64,000 nt of DNA from an uncultured virus (IMG/VR IMGVR_UViG_3300032299_001001) (Duplodnaviria; Heunggongvirae; Uroviricota; Caudoviricetes), in IMG/VR virus record IMGVR_UViG_3300032299_001001, positions 1-64,000 of that record. One strand, given 5' to 3'. The translations under genes were made by a program, and so were the position numbers. Below are positions 1,345 through 59,258 of the stretch, piece after piece; within the stretch, counting starts at the first letter, position 1; each line of letters opens with the position of its first letter. Below the pieces are notes generated by a model that was not told where the DNA came from, did no database searches, and was given only the letters and a program-made list of their open reading frames with translations.

Positions 1345-3756
1345 ATGCCCACAGCGTTCAAACTCTTCCCATACCAAGAAAAAGCGGTAGCCGAACACCT
1401 CCGGATTCTGGACTCGGTCGGGGCGTCACTCGACGGGACCGGGTGCGGAGGCGGGAAAACGGTCATCGCGAGTGCCCTTGCTGCACGATATGCGTTAAAA
1501 GTGTGCGTTGTATGTCCTAAATCGGTGATTTTGAAATGGACAGAAACCCTGTCCAGCTTCGGGGTGAACCCCCTATTTGTCCTTAATCCCGAAAAGTTAC
1601 GGGTCGGGAACACGCCCTGGCTTAAAAAGACTTCCAAAGGAGGGAAGAAGGTCGCCTTCGAGTGGCAGCTTCCCGAGCGGTGCCTTTTGATTTTCGACGA
1701 AACGCACATGTTCGGGGCCTATAACAGCCAGAACGGGAAGATGCTCGAATCCGCTGCGGGGAACCATGCCGTCCTGATGTTGAGTGCCACGGCCGCAGAA
1801 TCCCCGCTCAAGATGAAGGCGATCGGGGTCAACCTCCGGCTGTTCACGGGCGGCTACTTCTGGAAGTGGGTGCGCGAGATGGGGGCCGAGGAAGGGCGCT
1901 GGGGTGGCCTTGAGTGGAATCCCCGCCGGCCGGAGAACAAGGAGAAGATGGAGCGGCTCCACCATTCGGTATTCGCGAATAGAGGATATCGGGTTTCCGA
2001 GGAGGAGCTACGCGAGCAGTTGCCGGATCTCATGCTCTCCGATGAGCCCCTTTGGCTCTCAGATAAAGACCGCGCTACTGTAAAGGCGCTTTATGACGAA
2101 ATGGCTGATCCGGATGATCCGGGCGGTGTCAAAAACCTCCGGCAGCGCCAAGCCCTTGAAACGGTCAAGGTCGCGTATCTGGTGGAGCGTGCCCAGGAGA
2201 TCGTCGAATCAGGCGGGTCGGTGGTCCTCTTCCTAAATTTCCATGAATCCATCGACCAAGCACGGAAGCTCCTCGAAGACGCGGGTGTCATCGACGGACG
2301 AGAAACGGCCAAAGCCCGAGCGGAAACCCAACGCCGGTTCCAAGAAAACGAACTTCGGTGTGTCATCGTCCAGATCGCGGCGGGTGGCCAATCCATCGAC
2401 CTACACGACGTGGTCGGAGAGTTCCCACGAGTTGCACTTATTTGTCCCCAGTTCTCCGGCCTTGTGGAGGAACAGGCTCTTGGACGGATACGACGGGTCG
2501 GGGCCAAGTCTCGCGCACTCGCTTTAAGGCTCTACGCACCTGGCACCGTGGAGCAGGGAGCCCTGCGTCTGACCGAGGAAAAACGGGAGAATGTAGGAAT
2601 TTTGAATGCAGGGAAAAATAATTTGAACAATGGGGTGGGTACCCCGGTCTCATCTTCCATGTTGGTAATAACGCCATCAACGGAAGAGAGGTTGCACAGC
2701 GAACACTCGCCCTCCTCACTCAAAGAGAAAGCTAAATGCCCAGGATTCCGCAACGACCAAACTCGCGACAAGACCGCCGCAAACCGCGGAAATCTAGGTC
2801 ACCTCGCGACGGAAAAAGAGAACCTCGACATGATTCCGCCGGACGACCCGAAGCTGCGCGAAGCCGTCGAGATGTGCTTGCGTTATCTGTCGGCTCTCCG
2901 CAAGCCCCTCGTAAACGCTCGGGAGCTTCGGGAGCAGCGATACAACATGCTCGACCAGTTCGGGCACGTCGACCACATCATCCTGCACGGCGACAAAGCC
3001 GAGTTGGTCGATTACAAGTTTGCCTTCGGGGAATACGTAGCGGATTCGCCGCAGTTCTGGGCCTATGCCGTCGGGTTGTGGGATGCCCATCCTGAAGTCG
3101 AACAACTGACTGTTCATGTCCTTTTACCTTTCCGGGGGGTCATAGACCGCGAAACGTGGTCCCGGGAAAAAGACTACGATCGTCTGTCAGCGCAAACTGC
3201 CGCCATCATCGCTTCGGCGAGGCGGGATGACCCCTCGACCTATTTAACAGGGGCACACTGCGCTTGGTGCGCCCGCCAAGCCAGTTGCCCGAAACTTTCG
3301 TCTTTGGCCCTGACCATCGCGTCTGAATATAAGGCCGACGAACTCACGCTGCCGGCGCAATACGATCCGGCCAACATCTTTGACCCGCACGTTATTGCGT
3401 TCGCCAAGAAGGCAGCGCCGATCATGCGGTCATGGGCCGATAAGGTCGACGCCCGCGCTCTCGAAATGCGGATGCAAGAAGGAATCGAAATTCCTGGGTT
3501 CGAACTCGCCGAGCGGAAATCCCCTTTCAAGATCACCAACGCCCAAGCCGCGTGGGAGACGGTCAAAGATCAAATTACCCCTGAAGCCTTCGCCGCCTGC
3601 GCCGAGGTCAAGATCGGGGAACTGGAGAAAGCCATCGCACGGACCGCCAAGCGCGGCGAGATGGCCCGCTCCAAAGAACAACTTCGTGACGCATTGGTAG
3701 ACGCCGATGCGGCCAAGTCCGAGGGGACTTATCACTACCTGAAGAAAACCAAGTAA
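1345..3756 (+). CDS. SF2 (SNF2-like) helicase fused to a Cas4-like PD-(D/E)XK exonuclease (DUF2800-like)
   Basis: GCGGGKT, DETH, SAT and QALGRIRR motifs; C-terminal HSPSS..CPG, GHVD, DYK and HCAWC..CP. Confidence 0.8.
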   Translation: MPTAFKLFPYQEKAVAEHLRILDSVGASLDGTGCGGGKTVIASALAARYALKVCVVCPKSVILKWTETLSSFGVNPLFVLNPEKLRVGNTPWLKKTSKGGKKVAFEWQLPERCLLIFDETHMFGAYNSQNGKMLESAAGNHAVLMLSATAAESPLKMKAIGVNLRLFTGGYFWKWVREMGAEEGRWGGLEWNPRRPENKEKMERLHHSVFANRGYRVSEEELREQLPDLMLSDEPLWLSDKDRATVKALYDEMADPDDPGGVKNLRQRQALETVKVAYLVERAQEIVESGGSVVLFLNFHESIDQARKLLEDAGVIDGRETAKARAETQRRFQENELRCVIVQIAAGGQSIDLHDVVGEFPRVALICPQFSGLVEEQALGRIRRVGAKSRALALRLYAPGTVEQGALRLTEEKRENVGILNAGKNNLNNGVGTPVSSSMLVITPSTEERLHSEHSPSSLKEKAKCPGFRNDQTRDKTAANRGNLGHLATEKENLDMIPPDDPKLREAVEMCLRYLSALRKPLVNARELREQRYNMLDQFGHVDHIILHGDKAELVDYKFAFGEYVADSPQFWAYAVGLWDAHPEVEQLTVHVLLPFRGVIDRETWSREKDYDRLSAQTAAIIASARRDDPSTYLTGAHCAWCARQASCPKLSSLALTIASEYKADELTLPAQYDPANIFDPHVIAFAKKAAPIMRSWADKVDARALEMRMQEGIEIPGFELAERKSPFKITNAQAAWETVKDQITPEAFAACAEVKIGELEKAIARTAKRGEMARSKEQLRDALVDADAAKSEGTYHYLKKTK

Positions 3757-3774
3757 TAACGCCACATACCAATT

Positions 3775-7530: not shown

Positions 7531-8899
7531 ATCCCCTTACATGACCGACGACTTCAAAAAAGAAGTCAAACACTACGCGCTGCAAGATACCAAAGCGACA
7601 TTCGATCTTTGGGAGAAGCACGGCCATAAGATGCCGATGGATGAATTGTTCATCTCGCAGATCACTCGTGAGATGGGAATGCGCGGGGTGCCGGTCAACA
7701 TGGACCGGCTGATCGAGGCGCGGGATAAACTCATCTTGGAGAAGCGCCGTGCCGAAGCCCTGCTTCCGTGGATCGGTGGCGAGTATCCCCCGCTCTCGCT
7801 GCAAGCGATCCGCGACCAGTGTGAGAAAGAAGGTATCCGGGCTCCCAAGTCTTTTGCCGAGAAGGATCCCGAAGGCGCGGCATGGGAGGCAGAGTTCGCC
7901 GACAAATTTCCTTGGGTGCGGGCGGTGCGAGATTACCGCAAAGCGAATAAACATCTGAACACGGTGACCACGATGATCGCCCGCACCCGCCCCGATGGGC
8001 GTATGCCGTATGAGCTTAAATACTTCGGCGCGACGACCGGACGTGATTCCGGTGGCGGGGGCTGGAACTGTCAGAACATCCCGAAGGGTGAAGTAGCCGG
8101 CGTCGATATCCGCAAACTCATCGAGGCCCCAGAAGGTAAGACGCTCGTCATCTGTGACCTTGCCCAGATCGAAGCACGCTGCCTCCCCTACCTCGCCAAA
8201 GACACTGAGCTTCTCAATCTGATCGCCAGCGGCGTCGACATCTATGAGGCCCACGCTCGTGCGACGATGGGCTACAACGATCCGCGTCCGCTCAAGGAAG
8301 TGGATCCAAAGATGCGCTTTCTCGCCAAGGCCCGCGTCCTGGGTCTCGGCTATGGTTGCGGCCCCGCGAAGTTTGTCGTGGTCGCCAAGATGCTGGCCGG
8401 ACTCGACATTAGTTTCGAAGAAGCGCAACAGATTGTGCAGTCGTATCGCGAGGCCAGTCCGAAGATCATCGCGCTGTGGAAGAAGCTCGACCGGGCGCTG
8501 CGGATCTCCACCGACCCGAATGACCGCGAACTGACCATCCCCCTACCCTCCGGCCGCGAACTCGTCTACCGACAGATCAAGCGCCACAACGGCGAGATCA
8601 CCGGACTCCTGCCCCGTCTCGGCAAAATGATGGAGGTCAAACTTTACGGCGGATTACTCGCTGAAAATGCCACTCAGGCATTCGCCCGCGATGTCTTCAT
8701 GGATCGGTGCATCGCGCTGGAAGACGCTGGTTATGAAATTTTGCTAAGAGTCCACGACGAAGTAGTTTTGCTGGTGGACGAATCCGACGCCGAAGCCCAT
8801 CGCCAAGCCGTCGAGAAAATCATGTGCACACCGCCCTCGTGGTGTAGCGACCTCCCCCTCGGAGCCGAAGCGATCATCTCTAAACAATATACCAAGTAA
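7523..8899 (+). CDS. DNA polymerase family A, ExoIII plus polymerase domain
   Basis: YALQD (ExoIII), TGRDSG, motif A DLAQIEAR, motif B RFLAKARVLGLGYG, motif C VHDE. Confidence 0.92.
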   Translation: MPKSPYMTDDFKKEVKHYALQDTKATFDLWEKHGHKMPMDELFISQITREMGMRGVPVNMDRLIEARDKLILEKRRAEALLPWIGGEYPPLSLQAIRDQCEKEGIRAPKSFAEKDPEGAAWEAEFADKFPWVRAVRDYRKANKHLNTVTTMIARTRPDGRMPYELKYFGATTGRDSGGGGWNCQNIPKGEVAGVDIRKLIEAPEGKTLVICDLAQIEARCLPYLAKDTELLNLIASGVDIYEAHARATMGYNDPRPLKEVDPKMRFLAKARVLGLGYGCGPAKFVVVAKMLAGLDISFEEAQQIVQSYREASPKIIALWKKLDRALRISTDPNDRELTIPLPSGRELVYRQIKRHNGEITGLLPRLGKMMEVKLYGGLLAENATQAFARDVFMDRCIALEDAGYEILLRVHDEVVLLVDESDAEAHRQAVEKIMCTPPSWCSDLPLGAEAIISKQYTK

Positions 8900-8909
8900 T
8901 AACGCCTTA

Positions 8910-24874: not shown

Positions 24875-25457
24875 GTTTCTCATTGAGCCAGCACCAGGAT
24901 GGGAAGGTGTAGCCTTGGCTGACCTCTTGAGCGACATCCTGCGGCAACCAGATTTTCGCTTTGATCGCGCAGCCACAGACCCCGCATTGGTTGAGCCGTG
25001 AAGCATAAGCCGTGGTCCGTGCACCGATCAGGTTGAAGAGCCATTCGGCCAACCCCTTGCACCGCCAGCACCCCTTGACCATTGTGTTCAGGGGACATGA
25101 GGCACAGAGCGCGGCCCGGCGTTCGGCTTCGGGTTGATCAACAAGTCCCCTGCCCCTAAGTGCGGAGACCGCGGCTTGGATGAAACGCTTAACGTCCTCC
25201 ATCGTGAAGTGGGTCTTGAGTGCGTAGTCACCCTCGATGACGTGGCTGCAACTCTCACTGCCGATCGGAAGCTGGGCACAGACAAAGTCTTGGATGTCGG
25301 CCGAAGGATCACCCGCCGCAAGACTATTGGACTTACGATGGGTCGCCACCTTCTTGACCAGTTCGCGCAAGGTCGAAGCGGCAAACTCGAAGCCCGTCTC
25401 CGGTTGAACATAACGCCAACCGCCGGGCGGGGTCACTCTGGTATCGGTTACTATCAT
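24837..25457 (-). CDS. Cys-rich conserved phage protein
   Basis: PPGGW, CASCP, CWRC, CGVCGC..KAK, CW. Confidence 0.7.
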   Translation of the reverse strand: MIVTDTRVTPPGGWRYVQPETGFEFAASTLRELVKKVATHRKSNSLAAGDPSADIQDFVCAQLPIGSESCSHVIEGDYALKTHFTMEDVKRFIQAAVSALRGRGLVDQPEAERRAALCASCPLNTMVKGCWRCKGLAEWLFNLIGARTTAYASRLNQCGVCGCAIKAKIWLPQDVAQEVSQGYTFPSWCWLNEKPLPTGIEPVSQP

Positions 25458-28400
25458 CGATCGGCAAGGATTTCGCGGGGCACGGCCGAGCGGCGGGCTT
25501 GGTTGTAGGCGGAGACGCGGTCGTTTTTACCGCGGGACCGAACCAAGTCTATGCTCTGCTTGCTCGCGTCGTAGGGTTTGTATATTCCGGTGGTCACCAT
25601 TTTGATGGTGTCGCCGCCGAGACCTCCGTCACGGAGGATCGCTTTGGCCCGCTGCACAGACACCCCGAGACGGATCGCGGCGAGGTAGTCCCTGCGAATT
25701 GAGTCGATCAGGCTGCGCCGGGCGGCGTTGGACCGAGCATAGCCGTCGATCACGTCGCCGGCCGAGCGGGTGCCTTGGGCGGTGAACTCGCGGTTGAAGA
25801 GGGCCGAGGCATCGCGCATCTCGCGCATGAAGCGGGAAGATTTGAACTGGAGTGCCTGCTGCGCGTCGACCGAGGAGACACGCTGGCCGAGTGCGACACT
25901 GGAAAGCTCGTTGATGAGGTTGTAGGAACGTCCGGTCTCGCTCTCGATACCGAAGGCGGCTTTACCGATACGCTCGGCGCTGTTCACGGTGCCGGGGACG
26001 AAAGGATCGTAGAAGATCTTGCGGGCTACATTGAGACCGATGTTCGCTCCGGTGTCCTGCGGGTTGTAGACCTGACGGCCGGCCGCATCACGGTTCCGCA
26101 TCACGTCCATGATCGCTCCGGCGAAGATTTGCTCGCTGGTAAAGGGATCAATGGCTTGGCGCACCATGTCCATCGTGCCCTTGAGTAAGATCTCGTCTGC
26201 ACTGCCGGGACTGCGTATTGAACGCATGAATGCGGTCAAAGGCTTTTTGAAATACTCGTAGGGGTCCAAGAAGCTGACATCGAGAAAGTCGATCTCGCCG
26301 TTTGCTTTGCGGAAGAGGACAAGCTGACTGTTCTTCTGCCAGTCGGGCAGGAAGCGGCGGAGGTCTTCTTCGTCTTCTCCGGAAATGCCCGCCATCGCCA
26401 TAGCGGCGGAGCCGACGGCAAACGGGAGGAAGGCGGCAATAGTCATGCCGCGGACCCGCTTCCAGCCGATTGCTTCGAGTTCTTTGTTGCCCGTGGCTCG
26501 GCCTTCTGTGATCTCCTGGCGGGCCAGCTTTTGCAGATTGTAAGTGGTGCGGATGACTTCGCTCGTGAAGGTCACGAACGGGGCAACGAAGGGGAACTTC
26601 TTGAGATCCTGCACAATGGCCGGGGCCAGTGAGTAGGTCCAGTGGATGTCCCGGGCGATGACTGCGGCTTTCTCCTTGATCTTGTTGTCGTCCCAGTCAG
26701 GAAAGGCTCTCCGGTATTTATCCTGCTCGGCCTCGTAGATCATCACTTTGAACCAGTCGTCACCGGCCGAGTAGGTCTTGACCGCGAAGTCGGCCACCCG
26801 CTTGAAGGGATCTCCGACTTTATTCCAAACGAAGTCCCCGAAGTCAGGGCTCCCGGCGCGGCGGCTGGCCGTGAGGAGATCTTCAAGGAGTCCGGTGGTG
26901 ATCGACTCGCCGACGATACCGCGGCGGATATAGTCGTCGATTTTCACCCGCCACTCGGCGCGGCTCATGTTGCGATATTTCCCGAAGGTGCTGGCCAGCA
27001 CAGTGTCGGTAGAGTTGGCGAACCGTCGCTTAAAGTCGCCGCTGGTAATATCGTCCAACCCCAAGTTCCCGCCTGCGATTAGTGGCATGTAGTTACCGAA
27101 GAAGTTCCGGACCTGGGACGCCACCGATCCGACCGTCTTGGTCGCCATCGAGATGCCGGTCAGCTTCATCAAAGCACGCAGCCAAGCGTAGTGCTCCTCG
27201 GTCGAGCCAACCGGGAACATCTTGAAGAGCCCCTCGGCCAGATCCGGATGCACATACATCCCACCAAGAGGTCTCAGTGAAGGATTCTTCTCGGTTGAAA
27301 TACGGACGTAGCCGGGCGGGTGACGGGTATCGTCGGGGTTGTTCTCACGACTCCAAAGCCAGCCCTCTTGGATACCGAGGTCCCGCAGTTCCTTGAGGAA
27401 GTTATCGTTGGCGATGACGCTGGAGAGCTTCATTACCGTCTTGGCATAGTTGACGCTCGGATCTTCGTAGCGACCCCAAAGGGCTTGGATCTCCGGCGCG
27501 ATGTTGCCGCGCTGGTTGAACATGCTGAGATTCTTCTGCCCGGGGATGCGGCCGGAGAGCACCTCGATCGTCGGGGCCTCTGCGCCGATCGCGAGATAGC
27601 CTTCGAGGAGGTTCTCGACCTCGTCGTCGATCACTGAATCGTTGGCGAGTGCTTCGGCGTCGATACGGGAAAGTGTGCGGCCTTCGTCGGCAGCATCAGC
27701 GATCAGGTCTTGGGCTTTCGCTTTAGCCAAGCTGTTGCGGATATACTTACGGGCCGCGTCCATGACCTTGGCATCTTTTCGCACACGGTCAGTCCACTGC
27801 GGATCATCGAAGATCGCATAGCTACGGTTAAGGTAGGTGCCGAGCGCCTCATCAACTGTGATCGCCAAGTCGCCATTGACCAAACCCTCGTTAGGCAACT
27901 GCCGTGAAAGCGACTCGATGTGTGAGGACATCTCGCGGATCGTCGCAGCCAGTTCTTCCGGCAACTGGGCCAGGGCTTGCGTCTGTTTGTTCTGCTTAAA
28001 GTTGCGGCGGTTGTCGCGGATGTATTGGTCGCGCTTCTTGGCGGCTTGATTGGTCAACCCGCGAGCCCGCAAATCTTCAATTTCGCCGATCTGCTGCTCG
28101 GTGAGCGGGTTGTCCAAGTTACCGAGCGCCGTGTTGATCGTCTCCAGGGGCGGTGTCTCACCTTTGTAGAAATTTTTAATCTGCCGCTCCAACACCCGGG
28201 AGAGGTCTTGGATCTTCGACACATCGACTTTGATCGCCATCCGGCTTGAGCGGTAGAGATCGCCGGCCCGCTTATCGAGAAGCTCGTCGACGGCAAACAT
28301 ACCACCGCGGCTGATTGTGCCTCCCGTCGGCGTGCGGCGGGTCACCGGACGCCAGACTCGCCCGCGGGCTCGGGATTCGTTCGGTTGGTCCACCGCGCCA

Positions 28401-31400
28401 CTAGCTGCGTTCGACTGTATGGAAATTTGAACGTCGAAGGGGACCACGACTTTCTTTTTCCCGATCTTGACGGTCTTTACGTTTCCTGGAACGACATCCC
28501 AAACACGTTGAACCTCACCATTACGAACGCGCACCCAGGATCCATCGTCCTGTTTCGTGAACTTTAACTCATCGCGGAAGTAGCTGTTGATTTCGGGGAT
28601 CGTTGAATCTCTTCCCTTAATGTAGGGTTGCGAGGTGACGATTCGTGGGAAGGGCTCCCCAAGATCGACAAGTCCCTCAAGGCGAATGTCGATGTTGAAA
28701 AGTTTTTTGTGGGCATTGAGATTCGTGAGGTAGTCAAAAACATTGATCGACTGACCGACCACCCCGCTCCCGGTCACATCCGGATTGGTGTATTTGATGA
28801 CACGGTTGGTCGGCTTGTCCGAGTGGACTTGGTGCTCGGAACCGTCGCCGATCTTCTTACGGCCATTAATGACCGTGTTCTCAAAACTCTCAGGATCAAG
28901 GATGAGCCCTTGCTCTTCGAGGACGTTGATGAGTTCCTCGAACGCAGCCGCGCCTTGGGCACGACGGCGCTGTTCTAATCGTTGATCGGCTTGCCCGCCA
29001 GTGTCGGCACGAAACCGGAAGCTCTCGCCTGCGCCGAGATCTCGGCCTCGGTTGGCGGATTCTTGGAGGCGTAGTAAAGCCCTTCCGATGTTCCCTTCAG
29101 GGCTTCCCGTTCGCGGTCGTCCTCGAAGGTTTCCTTCGGCATCTTGGTAGATGAGATTCGGGCTTTCACCGACGGCGCGGCTTTCGTTGAGGTCTTCATT
29201 TGGTAGAGTCAGTCCTGCTTCGGCTGCGAGTTCGGAAAGCCGGGTAGCTCGAACGCTGTCGGGCCGTCCAGTGTCGCGTCCCGCCAACCGGCTTCTTGCA
29301 ATAGCCGATCCCACTGTTCGAGCGTAAGCGGCTCGCCCGGCTTCACGGGAATCTTCGTTGCCGAGGAAGTTGCCGGTTCCTTTGTAATATTTTGTTTCAT
29401 AGTTATTACTTGAGACTAACTCTCTGACGGGCAAAAAGAGCGAGCCGTTCTTATCAAAAATTAAGACACGAGTCCCTCCGTTTTGTTCAATCAAAGTCCG
29501 GAATTGGATCCCGGCTGTCTCTAAAATACCACGGGATTGGTCTGCCGTCTGATTTGGGATAAAGACATCATAAAGTCTAGAAGTGCCTTCTGAGTCTCTC
29601 AGGAATGGAATTACTTGCTTCTGGTTTCTCAGTGCCCCCTTGAGCGCGGCCATTACCTCTACGTCCTCATACGTCAGTCCCGGAGCATAGTGCTCGGTTA
29701 CCGTCGTGGGCTCCGCGCCGTCTGCCCAATCTCCGATAGCGTCACTGACTCGGCTTTGATCTAGCCCGAAAACCGTATGAATCCTACTGGCAAACGCCCT
29801 GAGTTGCTCTTGCTGCGTTCCAGTCAACGCCGCCCGGGCCTGTGCAAATGTCAGATTCTCCCGTTCATTAGGGGAGACAAACTCCATCGCCACCGCCCGA
29901 CTCTCCGTCACAGTGTCCGCAGCCAAGGCACCCCGCCAATCCATGAACTCCTCGGGGAGAAGGGCCACCTTCTGCGTGGCAAAAGGACGCTCGGAAGCAG
30001 GAACCTTGATCCGTGTTCCGTCAGCCGCGTAGTTGTGAGCCCCATAATTGACCCAGGAATTCTGCCCCCGGGTCTCGGTGGTCAGCGCCCTCTGGGCCAG
30101 CGGGGTGAACATCTGGCTGTGCTTGATCCAGGCGTTCTCCTCGCCGCGGGCTCCGAACTGGTAGTCCTCGGCTGCGTGACCGAAGAGATCGTGGATCGCA
30201 CGCAGCTTGTCATTCATCGTCAGCCCGTCGGCATCGGGCTGGTTGAGGAGCGGGTGCGGTTCACCGCCCGTGAAAAACCACAAGTGTTTGTTATCCCGGA
30301 CATCGCGCACCATCTCCCGGGAATTGGCGTAGGGTTGCCCCTCGGTTGTCCACGGCTCGAAGGTGACTCCCATCGTATTGATGGCATAGTCCCACTGCTG
30401 CTGGATCTCGAAGCCCAGTTGCCGGTAGGCGTCCTGGGTCTCCCGACCTTCATCGAGGACCGGGAGTGCGTCATAAGCCGCAGCGATGCTGCGAGCCCGT
30501 TGTTCGTCGACTGGGGCGTAGTGCCCGCGGACTACTTCGCCGAGCCCGTAACGGGCATTGTAGGCACTGACTCCTTCTTGGACGAAGGGGTTTGGCTCGG
30601 CGTTGGGCCGAACTGTTTGCCTTTGAACTTGGTCGCCTCCACTTGCGGATCCCATCCCTGGGGTGGTCGCTTGTAGGGCAGGTTGGTTTCTTCTGTCATT
30701 GGTTGCTCCTTGGTTAGACAAAGCCTCGCGGCTTTCGTTAGAAATTGCTCTCGATTCTTGGGGGGTCTGGATGGTGACCGGCTCTACAAAATCCCGAAGA
30801 TCAGGGATTTCCCACCACCTGACTTGCCGCTGCGGGATAAAGGCGGCGTCCCGCATCTGCGGTGTCAGATCACCCGCCCGCATCCCCGTGGGGAAGATGT
30901 GCACTGGAACCGGGACGGTTCCGTAAACTTCCCGCACGGCATCGATTCTGGACCGACCTTCATGGTCTTTAATTTTCCAGACACCAGCCGTGTCATCCCA
31001 AGTTGCACTGAGGAACGGAGGACCGAGCTTCTCGCCGCGGCTGAGTGCGCCAACAACAAAATCTTTAGTCTCGGTATCGGAAACACCGCCAGGAACGAGA
31101 CGGCGGAACTCGTCCGGTGTCATGTATTTCACGAACCCGAAGTAATTGATGTCAATTTGGTTCGGAACCTGACCGATCCCTTCACGCGAATCAAAAATGT
31201 TTTCGATAGGTGAAGGACTAACCGCCCGACTCATCGTCACCGGATCAGCCAGCGTATCGACATCGGCGTCCGCTTCCTCGACCGTCGCCTCTGCACCCCG
31301 TTCCATGTTCCGTGCAGCCATGAACTCTTGCAGCAAGGCTTCACGTTCCGCGGTCGTGCCGGTCAATCCCCGGGCGATGATCTGGTCTTCAATAAAATTG

Positions 31401-34400
31401 GTTGCTTGGTCGAGGGCGGCGAGATCCTGGGCCAAGGGGTTCGCTCCGATCGGAGGTTTGGCATAGCCCTCGGTCGTGCCTTCGAGAGCACCGAAGGTCG
31501 CGGCCCACGCATCTTGGAAAGCGTTGGCCAGCGGGCTCGTCTCCGCGGTCTTCTTGCCAGAGTTGAGATCGACGATGTCGCCCCAAGCCTCGGCCACGGG
31601 TCCGGACAGCGAGGTCTTCTTGCCTTTGGTCTTGGCTTTACCGAGCCCGAGTTGCAGGGCGAGCTTGAGAAATTCCGGACTCTCCATGAGACCGCGTGCG
31701 GTCTCCTCGGCATTGACCAGATAGGCAAAGCGGCGATCGGCATCGGCTCCGACCACGTTCGGGTTGGAGAGGTCATCGACCTGACGGCTCAACTGCGCCA
31801 GTGTTGTGGGGTTATTACCCGCGGGGACTTCGAGACCGTTGGTCCGGGCGACAGCCTTGAGCATTCGCACACGGAAGGCTTCGATTCCTTTGATCGCGGC
31901 CTTCTCGACGGTGTTGAGTTTTTCCAGTCTGGCGAACTTTGTTTTGGAGAACACATGGGCGATCTCGTGCAACATGGTCAGCCCGATGTCATCGGCCTCA
32001 TGCCAGTTATCGAGGTTGAGCACGACCGAGTAGCGGCCGACTGGCGAAGTCGCGTTCTCGTCGACTCCGAGCACACCGGCCCAAGAGGTCCGCGTCTGTC
32101 CGGTCACAAGATCGAACGCCCGTGCCCGGGCTTCTTTGCCGGCTTGTTTGCGGGTGCGCCCCGACTCACCGCCGAAAGCATACGTCTCCACGCCACCCGG
32201 AGTGGTCACCTCGAAGACACCCTCACCTTCCTCGCCTTGAACTTCCTGCACCCGAGCCCGCACTTCTTCACCGCGCAAAGGCTGGGTCGCGAAGTTGCGG
32301 CGGAAGATACCGACCTGCATCGCGATGTCATCAATGTTGAGACCGAACCGCTGACCCTGGCTCAAGACGACCTTGGCAATCATCCGCATGAACGCCGGTC
32401 GGTCGCCATCTTGCGCCATGAACTCAAGCGCGGCCTTCGGACCTTCGAAGATCCGGCTACGCACGGCCTCTTGGGCATTGCGGCGGATCGCATCGATCCG
32501 CTCACGGTTGGCCATGTAACTGGAAAATTCCTCTTGGTATCCGGCGACGAGTTCTTCAACTGATCGACCCATCAGGTCGGCCATGTTCGCCTCGGTCGCG
32601 GCGACAACGCGGCGTCCCTTGGTCGCGGCGAGAGCGTCGAGGGTGGTCGAGACTGCTTGGTAGATCTTCTCGACGACTGCCTCAGAGAGGCCGGCGACTA
32701 GACTGCGGTCGCCGATGAAGGAGCCGACGAAGGCTCGCCTCGCGGTGCTGGCGTTCCGTTGGTCAGGAGTTCCTCCCAGGCCAAGTCCTCCACCAGATCC
32801 AGCGGGTCCAGCCGGAACAGTTCCGGTTTGGCCATCATCAGTTCGGCCCACACGGTTACGTCCCCGTTGAGTGCCCGCTCGATTACGTCCTCGCCCACGG
32901 CTTTCTGTAGGCCCTCCGGCAGCGACCGGTTGCGCTCCAGTAGTCCGCCCACGAAGATCGTTAGCATTTGCGGGTTGTCCCGAAAGTATTTCTGAACCTT
33001 GTTGGGTTCCTTGGTTGATTTGGTCATAGGTTTTATTCCCTTGGAGATACTCTAGCAGTTCTTCGACACGTTGCTGGTCGCTTTCGCTCAATTCTTCTCC
33101 GCGGAGATGGTCTTTAAGAAGGTCGTCATCCTCTTCACTCAGGCGAGAACGGCGCTCCCGAGCATCCATCGCGGCATCGCTGGTCCGCTCGGCAAACCTC
33201 TCAGCCGGAGTCTGTTGGGGCCGCGCATCTCCGGTCGTCCCCGCGGCGAGATCGGCTTCTGCCGCCCGCTGGTTACGTCCGGTCCGGACCGCCGATTTCT
33301 TGGCGCTCTGCGCCTTGGTCATCGCCGTCTTGATCGGGCTGAAATCTCCGTAGCTCTGCCAACGCTTCACGATCGGCTCGACCGCGGCCGATGCCTGTGC
33401 TGCGGTTTGCCCCGAGGCCACGAGTTCCTCGGTGATCTGACGCGCTGCTTCCTGCACATCGCGACCGGTATCGGCTCCCGTCTCGTTCTCCTGATTGCTC
33501 TCGAAGATATCGAGCATCCGGCTGTTGAACTTTTTGAAGAGCGCGAGATCGCGCACCGGAGGCACACCCTTCTTATCGCGGCCGGCCACCTGTTCGATGA
33601 TCGAGGCATCGGCTTCGTCGGAAGCCATCGCTTTGGCCTCGGGATCGAGGTCGCTGCGACGATCAATGAACCGTGCAGCCCGTGCCCGTGCATCGCCGAC
33701 AAAGAACTGGTCGGCCTCGTCGAGGCTTTCCAGCTTTGACTGCACCGAACCAACGGTTTTGCCCGCGCTCTCTTTCTGTGTCTGCTTGCCCTTGCGAGCC
33801 CGCTCACTGCGAAGTAAACGCTCGGGTGAGTTGAAATAGATATTGTCAAAACCTCCCGGGCCGGTGTTCTCCCCGTTCACCGAAAAGTCATAGGCGGCAT
33901 CTCCGCGGCGATAGGTGTTGCCGTTGTAGACGACCTTAGTCACGACGTTGGCGGTCTGACCGTTCTTCATCGTGCGCGGCTCCACTTGCACACCTTCGGG
34001 AAGATTCTGAAGCTGGTCATCCGGCACCGGGACATCGAGTCCGAGGTTCATCTGACGCACCGTGGTGAAGAGGTTCTTCATCCACTTGCCGAAGTTTACG
34101 ACTTCTTTGACCCCGGGCTCACCTTCCTTGTCGAAGTAGCGCACCTCGCCCGGCACCTTGTTCGTCTTGCCGGGGTTGGCGTAGAGACCATCGTCGAAGA
34201 ACGCCTCTTGCGGCTGACCTTCTTGGTAAGGTGTCCCAAAGACGCGCTCGGCTTTCGCCTTGGTCGGCTTCGGTCCGAGCACCGAATTAACGGCAACATC
34301 GACCGGTGACTGCTTCGGCGTGGGCTGCTTGAACATCCCGAGCCGGTTGTATTGCTGCGGGGTAAAGACGAGCTTCTCTTGGTTGCCCTCGGCATCCGGC

Positions 34401-36721
34401 TCGGTCACCACGACCACGTTGCCATTCGGACGGCGGGCTTCGAAAGTCGCACCGAACGAAAGCGAGTCATCGGCTTTCTCATCCGAGAGGTAGACCGTCA
34501 CCTTGTCCTTGGGTTGCAGGCTCTCGACAAATTGGCGCGACTGATCCGGAGGACGGTTGACCGTTTGCTGTGCGACTTTGACCTGCTCGACTTTGGTATC
34601 GGCGATCGTCTGCTTGCTCTTCTGAATCTCCGCATCGAGTGCCGTCGCTTCGGCCGGCGCTTTGCTTAAAGTGTCTTCGACCTGAACGAGCTTTTGATAC
34701 AGCGGCTCGGTCAGCGTGCTCTTGGCTTCCGGTGCCAGGTCCCGGCGCTCGATCTCCCCGATCGAACTCTCCAGCGTGGTCCGCGCATCTCGCAGCAAGG
34801 TCACCGCATTGCGGTCCAGTGTCTCAGCGGTCTCCGCTGCTTGGTCCACGATCGAGACTTCAGGGCGGGCCAGTGCCGCCTTGGAAATTTCCTCCGCGCC
34901 CATCGTTGCGAGATCGGGCATCGGTGTCGGTTGTTCGACCGGCGGAGTCTGCACTGCCGGGATCGAAGTAGCAGTTAGACGAGTCAGCGCAGGGGCCGCA
35001 ACGATCTCGACTTCGCTCTCCGCAGGAACTTCGACCTCCGTGCCATCATTGGCCCGCAGCAAAAACCTTGCACCGTCTTGGGCCAGTGACCCCTCGTAGC
35101 CATTGAACCGCACATTGGAACCAACCGCCTGACCAGCCGGCGTCATGTCCGGACCATCATCAAGCACCGATTCCGTGGCCGGGGTGCGCGGTTTAGGTTT
35201 CTGGACCGGGGTGCGTTTTACCTGCGTCGATCCGACCTCATCGTCATCGAAGAACCCAAGGGCTTTCTGTGCCAGAGCTTTTTCCGATCGGGTCGGGAGA
35301 TTGAGATACTCGACACCATTAAGCAGCGAGAACACTTCACCCTGCGGAGTTGAAAACCTCGGCAACCCAGAAAACTTTTGTGGATCAGGGTTAAAGATCG
35401 CGACCTTGCCTTCGTCATTACGGCGAAAATCAAAACCCCCAACAACCTTCGGCTCCGACCAGTTACTCTCAAGGACTGTGAGTGGTTGGCCCGACGCCGG
35501 ATCCTCCGGGATGTTGACTAGTGTCTGCTGTGTAGTCCGGCGCAACTTCTCCGCCGTCTGCGGAGCCAGTGCTTCGATGACACTGCCAGCGCCACCCAAA
35601 GCACCGCCGACTGTGGCCCCCGCCAGAGCGGCAATCCGCCGCTCCCGTTCCGCTTCCGGCGTTCCGACCACTTCCTCGATCGTCCGGTTCGGATCGGCCG
35701 CACCGAGAGCGGCTTGCTCCAATCCGGTCTGCACATACTCGGTGCCACCTTCCAAGGTTGCCGCAGCAGGAAGACCAACACCAACGCTTCGGGCCACCCG
35801 GCCAGGAAATGAAATCCCTGTGGCTGTATCGACACCCTCTGCTGCCGCCCGTCCCGTCTTCGTGAAAGGCTTGAGAAATTTCCCCGCGATAAAGACCTCA
35901 CCCAAAGTATCGAGTGCAGCCCCAGGAACAGCAAACGCTGCCGCTGCCAAGGCATCCCCTTCACCCGTCTCTTGGGCGATCTGACCGAAGCTCCCGCCCG
36001 CGATCTGGCCAAAGTTGGCGGCATAAGCACCTCCGATAGCTCCTCGGGTAGCTGCTTTATTGATGAGTTCAGCCCCCTCACCGAGAAGCATTCTTTTCGC
36101 GACCATCCCGGCCACTTCTTTTTCCGCGACATCTTTGGCCAACCCCGCAGTCACCCGCTTGCCAATCTCATTGGCCACAATTTTCTTCGCCACCGTCTTC
36201 GCGGCAAAACCACCGACGCCACCACCGACGGCCGAGACAAGTAACTGCGGGATCTGCTCACCAAGTAACCCAGCCGCATAAGTCGCCGCATCCCCCAGCC
36301 CGCCAATCTCCTCGAAGGGATCCTGCACAGTCGCTTGGTTCTGCGCGGCCTCCTCCATCTTACGGACGTAATTATCCAGCCCGAACTCCTCGATTCCCTC
36401 CACCCCGAGCGCCTGCCCCATGAGCCCGACCAACCCGTAGCCGAGACCTTGGGTCTGGTCGACACCGCGATCTAAACCAGTCGAGAACTCTTCGCGGAGG
36501 GTGCGTTCGGGCGCGGGATTCAGGATCGTCCCGCGTAGAGCAACCCTCGAAGCAAACTCCTCTAAGGGAACAACCACGTCTTCCTCTTCACTTGAAGAAG
36601 CACTGGGGGGTGGAGTGGTTCCGGGCGGACGCGCCGAAAGGCGGTAGAAATCTTCTACTGGGATTATTACATCCTCGGAAGTCTCAGTTGCCGCATCATC
36701 CTCAAGGTCATACCAAGCCAT
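25454..36721 (-). CDS. Giant polyvalent internal virion protein (3755 aa)
   Basis: Last gene of the internal-virion cluster; HEIAH zincin, ParB-like DHEGRSR, RAIHDLFGH domain and kinase-like GSEHQV...SQPYI...DVVPGNV. Confidence 0.85.
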   Translation of the reverse strand: MAWYDLEDDAATETSEDVIIPVEDFYRLSARPPGTTPPPSASSSEEEDVVVPLEEFASRVALRGTILNPAPERTLREEFSTGLDRGVDQTQGLGYGLVGLMGQALGVEGIEEFGLDNYVRKMEEAAQNQATVQDPFEEIGGLGDAATYAAGLLGEQIPQLLVSAVGGGVGGFAAKTVAKKIVANEIGKRVTAGLAKDVAEKEVAGMVAKRMLLGEGAELINKAATRGAIGGAYAANFGQIAGGSFGQIAQETGEGDALAAAAFAVPGAALDTLGEVFIAGKFLKPFTKTGRAAAEGVDTATGISFPGRVARSVGVGLPAAATLEGGTEYVQTGLEQAALGAADPNRTIEEVVGTPEAERERRIAALAGATVGGALGGAGSVIEALAPQTAEKLRRTTQQTLVNIPEDPASGQPLTVLESNWSEPKVVGGFDFRRNDEGKVAIFNPDPQKFSGLPRFSTPQGEVFSLLNGVEYLNLPTRSEKALAQKALGFFDDDEVGSTQVKRTPVQKPKPRTPATESVLDDGPDMTPAGQAVGSNVRFNGYEGSLAQDGARFLLRANDGTEVEVPAESEVEIVAAPALTRLTATSIPAVQTPPVEQPTPMPDLATMGAEEISKAALARPEVSIVDQAAETAETLDRNAVTLLRDARTTLESSIGEIERRDLAPEAKSTLTEPLYQKLVQVEDTLSKAPAEATALDAEIQKSKQTIADTKVEQVKVAQQTVNRPPDQSRQFVESLQPKDKVTVYLSDEKADDSLSFGATFEARRPNGNVVVVTEPDAEGNQEKLVFTPQQYNRLGMFKQPTPKQSPVDVAVNSVLGPKPTKAKAERVFGTPYQEGQPQEAFFDDGLYANPGKTNKVPGEVRYFDKEGEPGVKEVVNFGKWMKNLFTTVRQMNLGLDVPVPDDQLQNLPEGVQVEPRTMKNGQTANVVTKVVYNGNTYRRGDAAYDFSVNGENTGPGGFDNIYFNSPERLLRSERARKGKQTQKESAGKTVGSVQSKLESLDEADQFFVGDARARAARFIDRRSDLDPEAKAMASDEADASIIEQVAGRDKKGVPPVRDLALFKKFNSRMLDIFESNQENETGADTGRDVQEAARQITEELVASGQTAAQASAAVEPIVKRWQSYGDFSPIKTAMTKAQSAKKSAVRTGRNQRAAEADLAAGTTGDARPQQTPAERFAERTSDAAMDARERRSRLSEEDDDLLKDHLRGEELSESDQQRVEELLEYLQGNKTYDQINQGTQQGSEILSGQPANANDLRGRTTGAQPVAAGGPTESRGRGRNRAGTQRGRNRVGRTDDGQTGTVPAGPAGSGGGLGLGGTPDQRNASTARRAFVGSFIGDRSLVAGLSEAVVEKIYQAVSTTLDALAATKGRRVVAATEANMADLMGRSVEELVAGYQEEFSSYMANRERIDAIRRNAQEAVRSRIFEGPKAALEFMAQDGDRPAFMRMIAKVVLSQGQRFGLNIDDIAMQVGIFRRNFATQPLRGEEVRARVQEVQGEEGEGVFEVTTPGGVETYAFGGESGRTRKQAGKEARARAFDLVTGQTRTSWAGVLGVDENATSPVGRYSVVLNLDNWHEADDIGLTMLHEIAHVFSKTKFARLEKLNTVEKAAIKGIEAFRVRMLKAVARTNGLEVPAGNNPTTLAQLSRQVDDLSNPNVVGADADRRFAYLVNAEETARGLMESPEFLKLALQLGLGKAKTKGKKTSLSGPVAEAWGDIVDLNSGKKTAETSPLANAFQDAWAATFGALEGTTEGYAKPPIGANPLAQDLAALDQATNFIEDQIIARGLTGTTAEREALLQEFMAARNMERGAEATVEEADADVDTLADPVTMSRAVSPSPIENIFDSREGIGQVPNQIDINYFGFVKYMTPDEFRRLVPGGVSDTETKDFVVGALSRGEKLGPPFLSATWDDTAGVWKIKDHEGRSRIDAVREVYGTVPVPVHIFPTGMRAGDLTPQMRDAAFIPQRQVRWWEIPDLRDFVEPVTIQTPQESRAISNESREALSNQGATNDRRNQPALQATTPGMGSASGGDQVQRQTVRPNAEPNPFVQEGVSAYNARYGLGEVVRGHYAPVDEQRARSIAAAYDALPVLDEGRETQDAYRQLGFEIQQQWDYAINTMGVTFEPWTTEGQPYANSREMVRDVRDNKHLWFFTGGEPHPLLNQPDADGLTMNDKLRAIHDLFGHAAEDYQFGARGEENAWIKHSQMFTPLAQRALTTETRGQNSWVNYGAHNYAADGTRIKVPASERPFATQKVALLPEEFMDWRGALAADTVTESRAVAMEFVSPNERENLTFAQARAALTGTQQEQLRAFASRIHTVFGLDQSRVSDAIGDWADGAEPTTVTEHYAPGLTYEDVEVMAALKGALRNQKQVIPFLRDSEGTSRLYDVFIPNQTADQSRGILETAGIQFRTLIEQNGGTRVLIFDKNGSLFLPVRELVSSNNYETKYYKGTGNFLGNEDSREAGRAAYARTVGSAIARSRLAGRDTGRPDSVRATRLSELAAEAGLTLPNEDLNESRAVGESPNLIYQDAEGNLRGRPRTGSPEGNIGRALLRLQESANRGRDLGAGESFRFRADTGGQADQRLEQRRRAQGAAAFEELINVLEEQGLILDPESFENTVINGRKKIGDGSEHQVHSDKPTNRVIKYTNPDVTGSGVVGQSINVFDYLTNLNAHKKLFNIDIRLEGLVDLGEPFPRIVTSQPYIKGRDSTIPEINSYFRDELKFTKQDDGSWVRVRNGEVQRVWDVVPGNVKTVKIGKKKVVVPFDVQISIQSNAASGAVDQPNESRARGRVWRPVTRRTPTGGTISRGGMFAVDELLDKRAGDLYRSSRMAIKVDVSKIQDLSRVLERQIKNFYKGETPPLETINTALGNLDNPLTEQQIGEIEDLRARGLTNQAAKKRDQYIRDNRRNFKQNKQTQALAQLPEELAATIREMSSHIESLSRQLPNEGLVNGDLAITVDEALGTYLNRSYAIFDDPQWTDRVRKDAKVMDAARKYIRNSLAKAKAQDLIADAADEGRTLSRIDAEALANDSVIDDEVENLLEGYLAIGAEAPTIEVLSGRIPGQKNLSMFNQRGNIAPEIQALWGRYEDPSVNYAKTVMKLSSVIANDNFLKELRDLGIQEGWLWSRENNPDDTRHPPGYVRISTEKNPSLRPLGGMYVHPDLAEGLFKMFPVGSTEEHYAWLRALMKLTGISMATKTVGSVASQVRNFFGNYMPLIAGGNLGLDDITSGDFKRRFANSTDTVLASTFGKYRNMSRAEWRVKIDDYIRRGIVGESITTGLLEDLLTASRRAGSPDFGDFVWNKVGDPFKRVADFAVKTYSAGDDWFKVMIYEAEQDKYRRAFPDWDDNKIKEKAAVIARDIHWTYSLAPAIVQDLKKFPFVAPFVTFTSEVIRTTYNLQKLARQEITEGRATGNKELEAIGWKRVRGMTIAAFLPFAVGSAAMAMAGISGEDEEDLRRFLPDWQKNSQLVLFRKANGEIDFLDVSFLDPYEYFKKPLTAFMRSIRSPGSADEILLKGTMDMVRQAIDPFTSEQIFAGAIMDVMRNRDAAGRQVYNPQDTGANIGLNVARKIFYDPFVPGTVNSAERIGKAAFGIESETGRSYNLINELSSVALGQRVSSVDAQQALQFKSSRFMREMRDASALFNREFTAQGTRSAGDVIDGYARSNAARRSLIDSIRRDYLAAIRLGVSVQRAKAILRDGGLGGDTIKMVTTGIYKPYDASKQSIDLVRSRGKNDRVSAYNQARRSAVPREILADR
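28975..29199 (-). CDS. Putative nested (+1 frame) small gene inside the giant ORF
   Basis: ATG 9 nt after the stop of the previous nested ORF; overlies an Arg/Gly-rich linker. Confidence 0.35.
   Translation of the reverse strand: MKTSTKAAPSVKARISSTKMPKETFEDDREREALKGTSEGLYYASKNPPTEAEISAQARASGFVPTLAGKPIND
29209..29400 (-). CDS. Putative nested (+1 frame) small gene inside the giant ORF
   Basis: GTAATAAC motif 1 nt before the ATG; protein-like PLTLEQWDRLLQEAGW. Confidence 0.5.
   Translation of the reverse strand: MKQNITKEPATSSATKIPVKPGEPLTLEQWDRLLQEAGWRDATLDGPTAFELPGFPNSQPKQD
30532..30699 (-). CDS. Putative nested (+1 frame) small gene (55 aa)
   Basis: AAGGAG Shine-Dalgarno-like sequence 6 nt before the ATG; MTEETNLPYKRPPQGWDPQVEATKFKGKQFG... 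Confidence 0.4.
   Translation of the reverse strand: MTEETNLPYKRPPQGWDPQVEATKFKGKQFGPTPSQTPSSKKESVPTMPVTGSAK
32698..33027 (-). CDS. Putative nested (+1 frame) gene (109 aa)
   Basis: AAGGGAATAAAACCT-ATG leader; globular helical composition while the host frame is R/G-rich. Confidence 0.55.
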   Translation of the reverse strand: MTKSTKEPNKVQKYFRDNPQMLTIFVGGLLERNRSLPEGLQKAVGEDVIERALNGDVTVWAELMMAKPELFRLDPLDLVEDLAWEELLTNGTPAPRGEPSSAPSSATAV

Positions 36722-36760
36722 TGGTAAAGGTAGCTGTTAAGAGGTTATTACGCAACGCGA

Positions 36761-58851: not shown

Positions 58852-58865
58852 GGTTTACGGAGTTA

Positions 58866-59258
58866 TTACTTTAACACAGTGTCGAGCAAATCCCAATTAT
58901 CGGGCTGACGGTGCAGCCGCGGCGAATAGCAAATCTTCTTCCTCTTCTTAATCTCGTCAAATCGCCAGAGGACGAACTGCTTCAAGTCGGGGAGCCAAGC
59001 GGCGAGAATCTGGAAGTCGCCGCGAGCATAAGCCTTCTTGGTTTTCTTACCGCGGCTCGTCATCACTCCGTAGTTATTGCGGTGCGGGTTAAAGGTCGCG
59101 GTTTTTACCTGAACACTGATGGGTCGTTTCGGGGGACGGAGAATAACGAGGTCGGCGGCATGGGCATGACCGAGCGGCACGTAGACTTTCCAGCCACGCC
59201 CATCGGCTTCATAAATAAACCTCACCTCGGCCGAGGTGCCTTTTTCACAGTCAGTCAT
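58866..59258 (-). CDS. PD-(D/E)XK endonuclease
   Basis: KGTSAE..F...DLVI...VQVKT. Confidence 0.75.
   Translation of the reverse strand: MTDCEKGTSAEVRFIYEADGRGWKVYVPLGHAHAADLVILRPPKRPISVQVKTATFNPHRNNYGVMTSRGKKTKKAYARGDFQILAAWLPDLKQFVLWRFDEIKKRKKICYSPRLHRQPDNWDLLDTVLK

Follow-up and report, generated by a model that had tools for sequence, protein, structure and literature searches.

Genes nested out of frame within larger genes are well known in tiny viruses, for example the overprinted pairs B-in-A and E-in-D of the Microviridae, and in tailed phages they are mainly represented by the Rz1-type spanins. In phage lambda and its relatives, Rz1 is a small gene lying entirely in the +1 frame of the larger late gene Rz on the same strand, with a start codon and a ribosome-binding site of its own; translation takes place in both frames, and the Rz1 product is a lipoprotein with a lipobox cysteine. 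To our knowledge, gene callers forbid nested open reading frames (ORFs) by design, and in large phage genes such ORFs hardly ever receive an annotation. Here we analysed a stretch of 64 kb (hereafter the window) of the 66.4-kb record of an uncultured tailed phage (IMG/VR record IMGVR_UViG_3300032299_001001), in which the gene for a giant virion protein of the polyvalent type, 3755 amino acids (aa) in length, holds ORFs in its +1 frame. An initial annotation had proposed that four of these, named here ORF A to ORF D, are hidden genes overprinted on the giant gene, which we call the host gene. Our analysis indicates that ORF A is very probably a real, conserved nested gene. The reading that we prefer, and hold with good confidence, is that the linker of the polyvalent protein in which ORF A lies is dual-coding and that ORF A specifies a separate, internally initiated +1 protein.

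The four ORFs were found where the initial annotation had placed them; each is on the minus strand and, relative to the host gene, in the +1 frame (Table 1). Sequence inspection also confirmed the start signals listed for them, namely a Shine-Dalgarno (SD)-like tract ahead of ORF A (Table 1), AAGGAG 6 nucleotides (nt) ahead of the ATG of ORF B, the motif GTAATAAC (29402-29409) 1 nt ahead of the ATG of ORF C and, for ORF D, a start after a gap of 9 nt from the stop of ORF C. By their mere presence the ORFs do not exceed chance. Within the giant gene, 21 ATG-initiated ORFs of at least 40 aa lie in the +1 frame and none in the +2 frame. Those of 204, 137 and 108 aa are among the 21, so that some exceed all four ORFs in length; the four rank 3rd, 7th, 9th and about 13th. 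When the codons were shuffled synonymously 2000 times, keeping the giant protein and its codon usage, 16.4 +/- 2.5 such +1 ORFs were obtained and 5.5% of the shuffles reached 21. The longest +1 ORF averaged 191 aa in the shuffles (204 aa observed), and the spans of ORFs A, B, C and D were free of stops in 53%, 78%, 56% and 24% of them, respectively.

Codon-phase composition gave a clearer picture of where the ORFs lie. A position-specific base profile was trained on 11 other genes of the window, and the giant gene was scanned with it in 248 segments of 45 codons. Only 16 of these segments agree better with the +1 than with the host phase, and none favour the +2 phase; the 16 merge into three regions, aa 1186-1335 (region A), aa 1996-2040 (B) and aa 2461-2595 (C/D). 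As these three regions coincide with the sites of the four ORFs, the placement of the ORFs is not random. The phase score per codon is +0.163 for ORF A, +0.106 for ORF D, +0.024 for ORF C and -0.022 for ORF B; 11 other +1 ORFs are strongly host-phased, with scores from -0.22 to -0.40. The GC content of region A by host codon position is 0.73/0.65/0.42, which on rotation to the +1 phase gives the gene-wide pattern (0.64/0.45/0.67), and the same rotation was seen in four other lineages.

ORF A is conserved across relatives of the phage. In the IMG/VR contigs L001 and L002 the giant gene is present with protein identities of 92% and 88%, respectively, and the protein specified by ORF A (product A) has six relatives in the protein database with identities of 61-88%. 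A profile of product A matches the +1 frame of the giant gene in the contig L022 with an E value of 2.7e-14, the host proteins of L022 and the window being only about 29% identical in this part. In a comparison of the alternative frames of the window and L022, three segments match; two of them lie at 73-78% host identity and represent hitch-hiking, and the third, region A, is the only one not explained by such identity. To obtain loci independently of the +1 frame, IMG/VR was scanned with the peptidase domain of the host frame (alignment A4), a search that is blind to that frame, and 14 loci were recovered. All 14 possess an intact A-like +1 ORF within an uninterrupted giant ORF. The A-like ORFs are 102-116 aa long from an ATG at the equivalent place, with 106-129 codons open. 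These loci fall into four clades, one of them new, and with the window copy make 15 records; a scan with the +1 pattern recovered the same 14 contigs. The initial annotation had named stops in the +1 frame, or a missing ATG and leader, in homologous linkers as signs against the ORFs being genes; across the A-like ORFs of the 15 records no such stop was seen, and the ATG was always present.

The gene calls P0001-P0007 in the protein database were set aside as evidence for ORF A, most of them being from contigs of 589-2640 bp. A search of shorter proteins found no host-frame fragment beside them; therefore the giant ORF probably runs off these short contigs and the nested ORF was called instead. 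For P0005, one of these calls, the intact giant protein P0161 has a linker with which it is codon-compatible at 116 of 116 positions, so that P0005 is nested there. Scans of metagenomes and genome collections with the ORF A alignment returned no relatives, the alignment A2 of distant host-frame segments had no scannable stretch, and P0033 has no IMG/VR locus. Scans with P0162 returned many loci, all of which reflect an unrelated shared domain except L022. The search of the four products against GenBank phages by tblastn gave no meaningful match.

To determine which frame is under selection, substitutions were analysed in both frames. Among the window, L001 and L002, the variable sites of the whole gene are distributed over the three codon positions as 411/311/946, and the excess at position 3 vanishes in A, B and D. 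In region A, the nonsynonymous substitution rate divided by the synonymous one (dN/dS) is 0.36-0.39 for the +1 frame and 0.84-0.95 for the host frame, whereas in nine control +1 ORFs the host dN/dS is at most 0.15 and the +1 dN/dS is at least 0.94 wherever it could be computed. For six inter-clade pairs, local alignment scores are 99-258 in the +1 frame and 72-200 in the host frame. Under a host-only null, in which the host proteins were fixed and the codons redrawn 300 times, the mean +1 scores were 33-45 and the maxima 57-108, and the observed +1 scores lie above this null with z of 9-18 in 6 of 6 clade pairs. Under the converse null, with the +1 protein fixed and the codons redrawn, the host score exceeds expectation with z of 1.5-7.5, and the host frame was stop-free in only 0-3% of the redraws. 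As both nulls were exceeded and the host frame so rarely stays open by itself, both frames are maintained. The comparison thus indicates that the host frame is kept open by selection, with some constraints of its own, and that the amino-acid sequence is defended mainly in the +1 frame.

The same was indicated by three independent close pairs of sequences (window-L001, L093-L094 and L095-L099). In these pairs, 64 of 168 changes are synonymous in the +1 frame compared with 25% expected (p 1.8e-4), and when the alignments were guided by the host frame, 58 of 164 are so (p 0.0028). Changes that are synonymous in the host frame, 34.5 of 168 against 31% expected, are not enriched. In control regions rich in host changes, the +1-synonymous fractions are 37%, 46% and 25%, with 33-36% expected. 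The codon-level comparison of both frames across homologs, which the initial annotation had suggested as a check, thus shows the +1 frame to be the better conserved one for ORF A. We also observed that about 16% of the linker bases are different in L001 and the window, whereas synonymous sites in the flanking domains differ at only 5-9%, which suggests that the linker and its nested gene have had a separate history, by recombination, or have evolved faster.

The ATG of ORF A is kept in 15 of 15 records. It is formed by a host tyrosine codon TAT followed by a codon that begins with G, or by Asp-Gly codons in one clade; the tyrosine codons of the giant gene are TAC in 53 cases and TAT in 31. In the relatives an SD-like tract precedes the ATG as AAGGA at 9 nt in L106, as AGGAG at 9 nt in the seven loci of the L113 type, and as AAGG at 11 nt in L104/L105. 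The tracts spaced at 9 nt come from different host codons in each type. An internal promoter was considered as well and rejected, promoter-like sites being at chance level.

Product A is very probably an acidic, all-helical protein of about 105-116 aa with a disordered tail rich in serine and proline, as judged from its sequence family and the structural model. Its isoelectric point is 4.7, and the values of the family range from 4.2 to 5.0. In the family alignment (A6, 15 sequences), a number of hydrophobic and charged positions do not vary; they include a Pro-Glu-Leu run with an Arg two residues after it, a Glu-Asp pair and a doublet of Leu. The acidic N-terminus varies between members, and Ser and Pro abound in the tail. 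A-like products contain no cysteine, hence no lipobox, and product A has no signal peptide. The AlphaFold2 model shows a bundle of seven helices with a mean predicted local distance difference test (pLDDT) score of 77.2 (80-92 over residues 10-95) and a predicted template modelling (pTM) score of 0.64.

Several points weigh against the view that ORF A is a gene translated from its own start. The evidence at the DNA level comes from 15 metagenomic records of one phage group. The tests on single pairs gave p values of 0.008-0.23 under a simple mutation model (kappa 2), and the excess of +1-synonymous changes could be inflated if the host linker best tolerates changes at the first codon position. 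Given its own conservation under the converse null, the host frame is more than a mere passenger. L117 lacks an SD-like tract within 20 nt of the ATG, and the purine tract of the L110 type stands 15 nt off; an SD tract is also altogether lacking from many real genes of this phage. As to the product, only seven close sequences went into the AlphaFold2 prediction, and no match was found in Pfam or PHROGs. Foldseek searches of the PDB and BFVD found no hit at an E value of 0.001, and a wide VIA search gave a best Z of 4.2, its rows including bacteriocin-immunity and inhibitor-like helical bundles at noise level. The ESM Atlas yielded no usable match, with a recognition value of 1870, under the level of most known families.

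It is conceivable, and in our judgement unlikely, that none of the four ORFs is a gene, the open +1 frames arising by chance from the G-rich, T-poor codons of the linkers and the conservation of ORF A being a side effect of constraint on the host linker or on the DNA or RNA. The agreement of ORF number and length with the shuffles, including the frequency with which span A stays open, is what this explanation expects; so are host linker motifs, such as ESR and GTGTV, that are conserved in far homologues, the independent conservation of the host frame and the lack of a known family for product A. On the contrary, host conservation and codon usage predict +1 scores several-fold below those observed, and a host identity of 29-36% elsewhere in the gene leaves no detectable +1 similarity. 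Variation in region A is concentrated at the wobble position of the +1 frame and depleted at that of the host frame, unlike the pattern of an RNA or DNA element, and an RNA element as a candidate was rejected, for no Rfam family matches the region.

The three other ORFs fared less well than ORF A. ORF D is intact with its ATG in the window, L001 and L002. Its dN/dS is 0.38-0.83 in the +1 frame and 0.31-0.62 in the host frame, and two of the three pairs have the lower value in the +1 frame. Of the changes that are nonsynonymous in the host frame, 16 of 32 and 19 of 36 are +1-synonymous (34% expected; p 0.04 and 0.016). Together with its phase score these are weak signs of a gene. The same AlphaFold2 procedure gave a pLDDT of 66.7 and a pTM of 0.31. 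ORF D was not found in five genomes of other clades, and a +1 scan returned only the two known contigs. Against it also count the host-frame deletions across its span in P0159 and P0161 and the restriction of the comparison to three close genomes. We regard ORF D as a possible second nested gene, restricted to its lineage, with chances slightly short of even. ORF B is intact in 3 of 3 close genomes, with only 6 variable sites. Its product is of low complexity and rich in P, T, S and K, in its C-terminal half it overlaps with the conserved beginning of the phrog_3170 domain, and its module differs in P0159 and P0161. It is doubtful that ORF B is a gene; it is probably a by-product of linker composition. 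For ORF C, L002 lacks the ATG and cannot be aligned there, and since the window and L001 differ at one residue, dN/dS has no power. The 724-nt stretch with ORF C (29164-29889) is replaced by 562-565 other letters in three of four sequencing runs, all DNA contigs (X4, X5 and X7), and in L002. ORF C is similarly doubtful as a gene and is most likely a by-product of linker composition.

The stronger proposal, that all four ORFs are overprinted genes and that each encodes an inhibitor or a chaperone cognate to the next effector domain, is less probable still. It would account for the ORFs falling exactly in the only three +1-phased regions of the giant gene, for the start signal and the catalytic-looking module that accompany each of them, and for the excess of +1-synonymous change in A and D. 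Upstream positions are indeed as the initial annotation had described them, with ORFs A, B and D preceding the HEIAH motif (aa 1585), the IHDLFGH motif (aa 2176) and the region that is Kinase-PolyVal in the relative P0008, respectively, and the setting in a linker rich in arginine and glycine (R/G-rich) holds for ORF A, which overlaps it. The proposal is contradicted by the replacement of the module with ORF C, by the few variable sites, low-complexity product and negative phase score of ORF B, and by the narrow distribution and low pTM of ORF D; moreover, nothing ties any of the products to its neighbouring domain. Thus, the idea of hidden overprinted genes stands for ORF A, which is conserved, under purifying selection in the +1 frame and predicted to fold; it is possible for D, on weak signs, and unsupported for B and C. 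As a caution, neither the presence of an ORF nor a good SD motif was a guide; three of the four look-alike ORFs cannot be demonstrated to be genes.

In the seven L113-type loci a TAA stop in the +1 frame lies two codons before the ATG of ORF A, and a frameshift fusion is therefore excluded there, which makes internal initiation the likeliest route by which ORF A would be translated. Frameshift products are common in phage structural genes, such as G/GT of lambda and 10A/10B of T7. A programmed +1 ribosomal frameshift that would yield a truncated giant protein, consisting of the N-terminal module and the A domain, agrees with the shared strand, the +1 relation and a +1 frame open for 8 codons ahead of the ATG in the window and 20 in L106, and is nevertheless very improbable in view of the TAA in the L113 type, a frame opening only 4 codons ahead in the L110 type, an ATG preserved in all 15 records though a frameshift product does not need it, and the lack of a conserved slippery site among the upstream sequences of the compared loci. 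By internal initiation, the R/G-rich linker that joins the N-terminal module to the zincin (HExxH) module would be dual-coding: on the late mRNA, ribosomes would start behind the SD-like tract, at the ATG of ORF A, and produce a separate protein of about 105-116 aa, and those reading the giant frame would cross the same DNA and make from it only a tolerant, disordered linker.

The window is arranged as plus-strand replication genes up to about 24 kb, followed by a minus-strand structural block whose penultimate gene is the host gene, with tail genes upstream of it. The locations of the features in this gene are given in Table 1.

Table 1. Features of the giant virion-protein gene and its +1 ORFs, with positions in the window
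Feature	Position	Strand	Description
Host gene	25454..36721	-	3755-aa ORF, phage polyvalent virion protein; penultimate gene of the structural block
Linker, probably dual-coding	32717..33166	-	Host aa 1186-1335; +1-phased; host frame R/G-rich, low complexity; ESR at aa 1273-1275
AAGGGA	33037..33042	-	SD-like tract, 9 nt ahead of the ATG of ORF A
ORF A	32698..33027	-	109 aa, +1 frame; nested gene, very probably real
HEIAH motif	31955..31969	-	Zincin metallopeptidase motif, aa 1585-1589; module directly downstream of ORF A
ORF B	30532..30699	-	55 aa, +1 frame
ORF C	29209..29400	-	63 aa, +1 frame
ORF D	28975..29199	-	74 aa, +1 frame; upstream of kinase-like module

The giant frame is uninterrupted in all relatives. 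Over aa 2952-3561 the giant protein matches a PHROG annotated as 'virion structural protein', and it also contains a phrog_3170 domain. The residues H, E and H of the HEIAH motif are invariant across clades in alignment A4, and the zincin module gave a weak match to Peptidase_M13 (E 0.074). The giant protein of the window has no Pfam match at an E value of 0.01, LPD38 reaching 16.1 bits, below its cut-off of 27. In relatives, Kinase-PolyVal was detected in P0008 (30.5 against a cut-off of 27) and ART-PolyVal in P0159 (58.7 against 31.2). The giant multidomain protein, encoded in the structural block, has a zincin-like HExxH module, and from its sequence features we assign it to the phage-type polyvalent proteins as described by Iyer et al. 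2017 (PMC5512222). According to the excerpted text of that paper, the zincin domain is predicted to cut polyvalent proteins into units.

With regard to such cutting, the motif [ED]SR was observed 8 times in the giant protein where 2.2 are expected (p 0.0025), and ESR 6 times where 1.2 are expected (p 0.0005). The [ED]SR sites are at aa 1273, 1844, 1989, 1996, 2273, 2457, 2513 and 2782; at least five of them (aa 1273, 1989, 1996, 2513 and 2782) lie at putative module borders in the context x-E-S-R-A/G/E, and the ESR at aa 1273 (32897-32905) is shared with the distant homologues P0023, P0036 and P0162. These motifs are candidate cleavage sites for the giant protein's own zincin peptidase. Whole modules of the giant gene are exchanged among relatives; besides the stretch with ORF C, a 477-nt ART-PolyVal-like module (30746-31224) is cleanly skipped in three of four sequencing runs, and L001 is without it.

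As product A is always encoded just ahead of the peptidase module, a partner role is the first guess for its function. It is possible, if tentative, that product A is a chaperone or an inhibitor of this adjacent self-processing module; otherwise it may be an independent late or injected accessory protein. The initial annotation had also suggested relics of gene pairs absorbed into the giant protein. For ORF A such a relic fits a nested frame that looks like ordinary coding sequence and a host frame that looks like a passenger. A split arrangement with a stand-alone small gene was not found among the relatives; P0149 and P0093 were considered as such and rejected, as both have their starts within the peptidase module and resemble truncated ORFs. 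A more far-reaching scenario, rather unlikely as a whole, is that the small helical protein is the older one, that the giant protein was assembled by out-of-frame read-through, which would make the R/G-rich linker the overprinted by-product, that the small protein, produced together with the giant one, controls the cutting by the zincin at the ESR borders, and that ORF D is a second example. If this were true, linkers between the domains of giant injected phage proteins could hide whole genes.

The motif GTAATAAC occurs in 17 copies in the window, where 0.46 are expected, and always in the sense of the local genes (e.g. 3753-3760 and 8896-8903 on the plus strand, 36744-36751 and 58862-58869 on the minus strand). 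In many cases the TAA stop of the preceding gene is part of the motif and the following ATG is 6-30 nt away; nCCnCA usually comes directly after the motif. By these sequence features it looks like a gene-junction signal, which may be a promoter, a processing site or a re-initiation site. Two copies are inside the giant gene (31811-31818 and 29402-29409), both in frame and encoding Gly/Ser-Asn-Asn. A +1 ORF of 137 aa (31363-31776, minus strand) starts 34 nt after the intragenic copy with the full extended consensus; this ORF is clearly non-coding, with a composition score of -0.37 per codon and a +1 dN/dS above 1.8.

The results concern a probable nested gene that is conserved in four clades of lake-water phages inside an 11-kb gene and whose frame is the better conserved of the two. 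Disordered linkers of giant multidomain phage proteins are consequently a place to seek hidden genes. ORF A offers a clean test case, in that its start codon can be removed without altering the giant protein, and its product would be a further part, small and acidic, among those that accompany injected polyvalent effectors.

Among the known systems, ORF A resembles lambda G/GT and T7 10A/10B in that a second product would come from another frame of a late structural gene, and differs from them in its conserved start codon and in the upstream stop of the L113 type, which precludes a fusion. With the overprinted genes of small viruses, those of RNA viruses being reviewed in PMC8227390, and as far as the excerpted text of that review describes them, it shares coding in two frames, one frame being ordered with ordinary composition and the other disordered and of low complexity. 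Those genomes are compact and short of coding space, whereas ORF A lies in an 11-kb gene of a 66-kb tailed phage, and here it is the long host frame that looks like the passenger. The host gene itself is like the polyvalent proteins as the excerpts of PMC5512222 present them, being giant, multidomain, located in a late or virion block and provided with a zincin-like module, with Kinase-PolyVal and ART-PolyVal in its relatives; in those excerpts the words 'overlapping' and 'linker' have 0 occurrences each, and no gene within a polyvalent-protein gene is described. In a limited collection of literature, we found no description of a nested gene within the gene of a polyvalent or giant virion protein. 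As regards the Rz/Rz1 pair, ORF A is likewise small, wholly nested and in the +1 frame of a larger late gene on the same strand. The differences are that product A is devoid of cysteine and signal peptide and so is not an Rz1-type spanin, and that its host gene encodes no small membrane protein but a polyvalent virion protein of 3755 aa, of which a disordered linker is overlapped. ORF A is thus very probably a nested out-of-frame phage gene of a known kind in a new setting.

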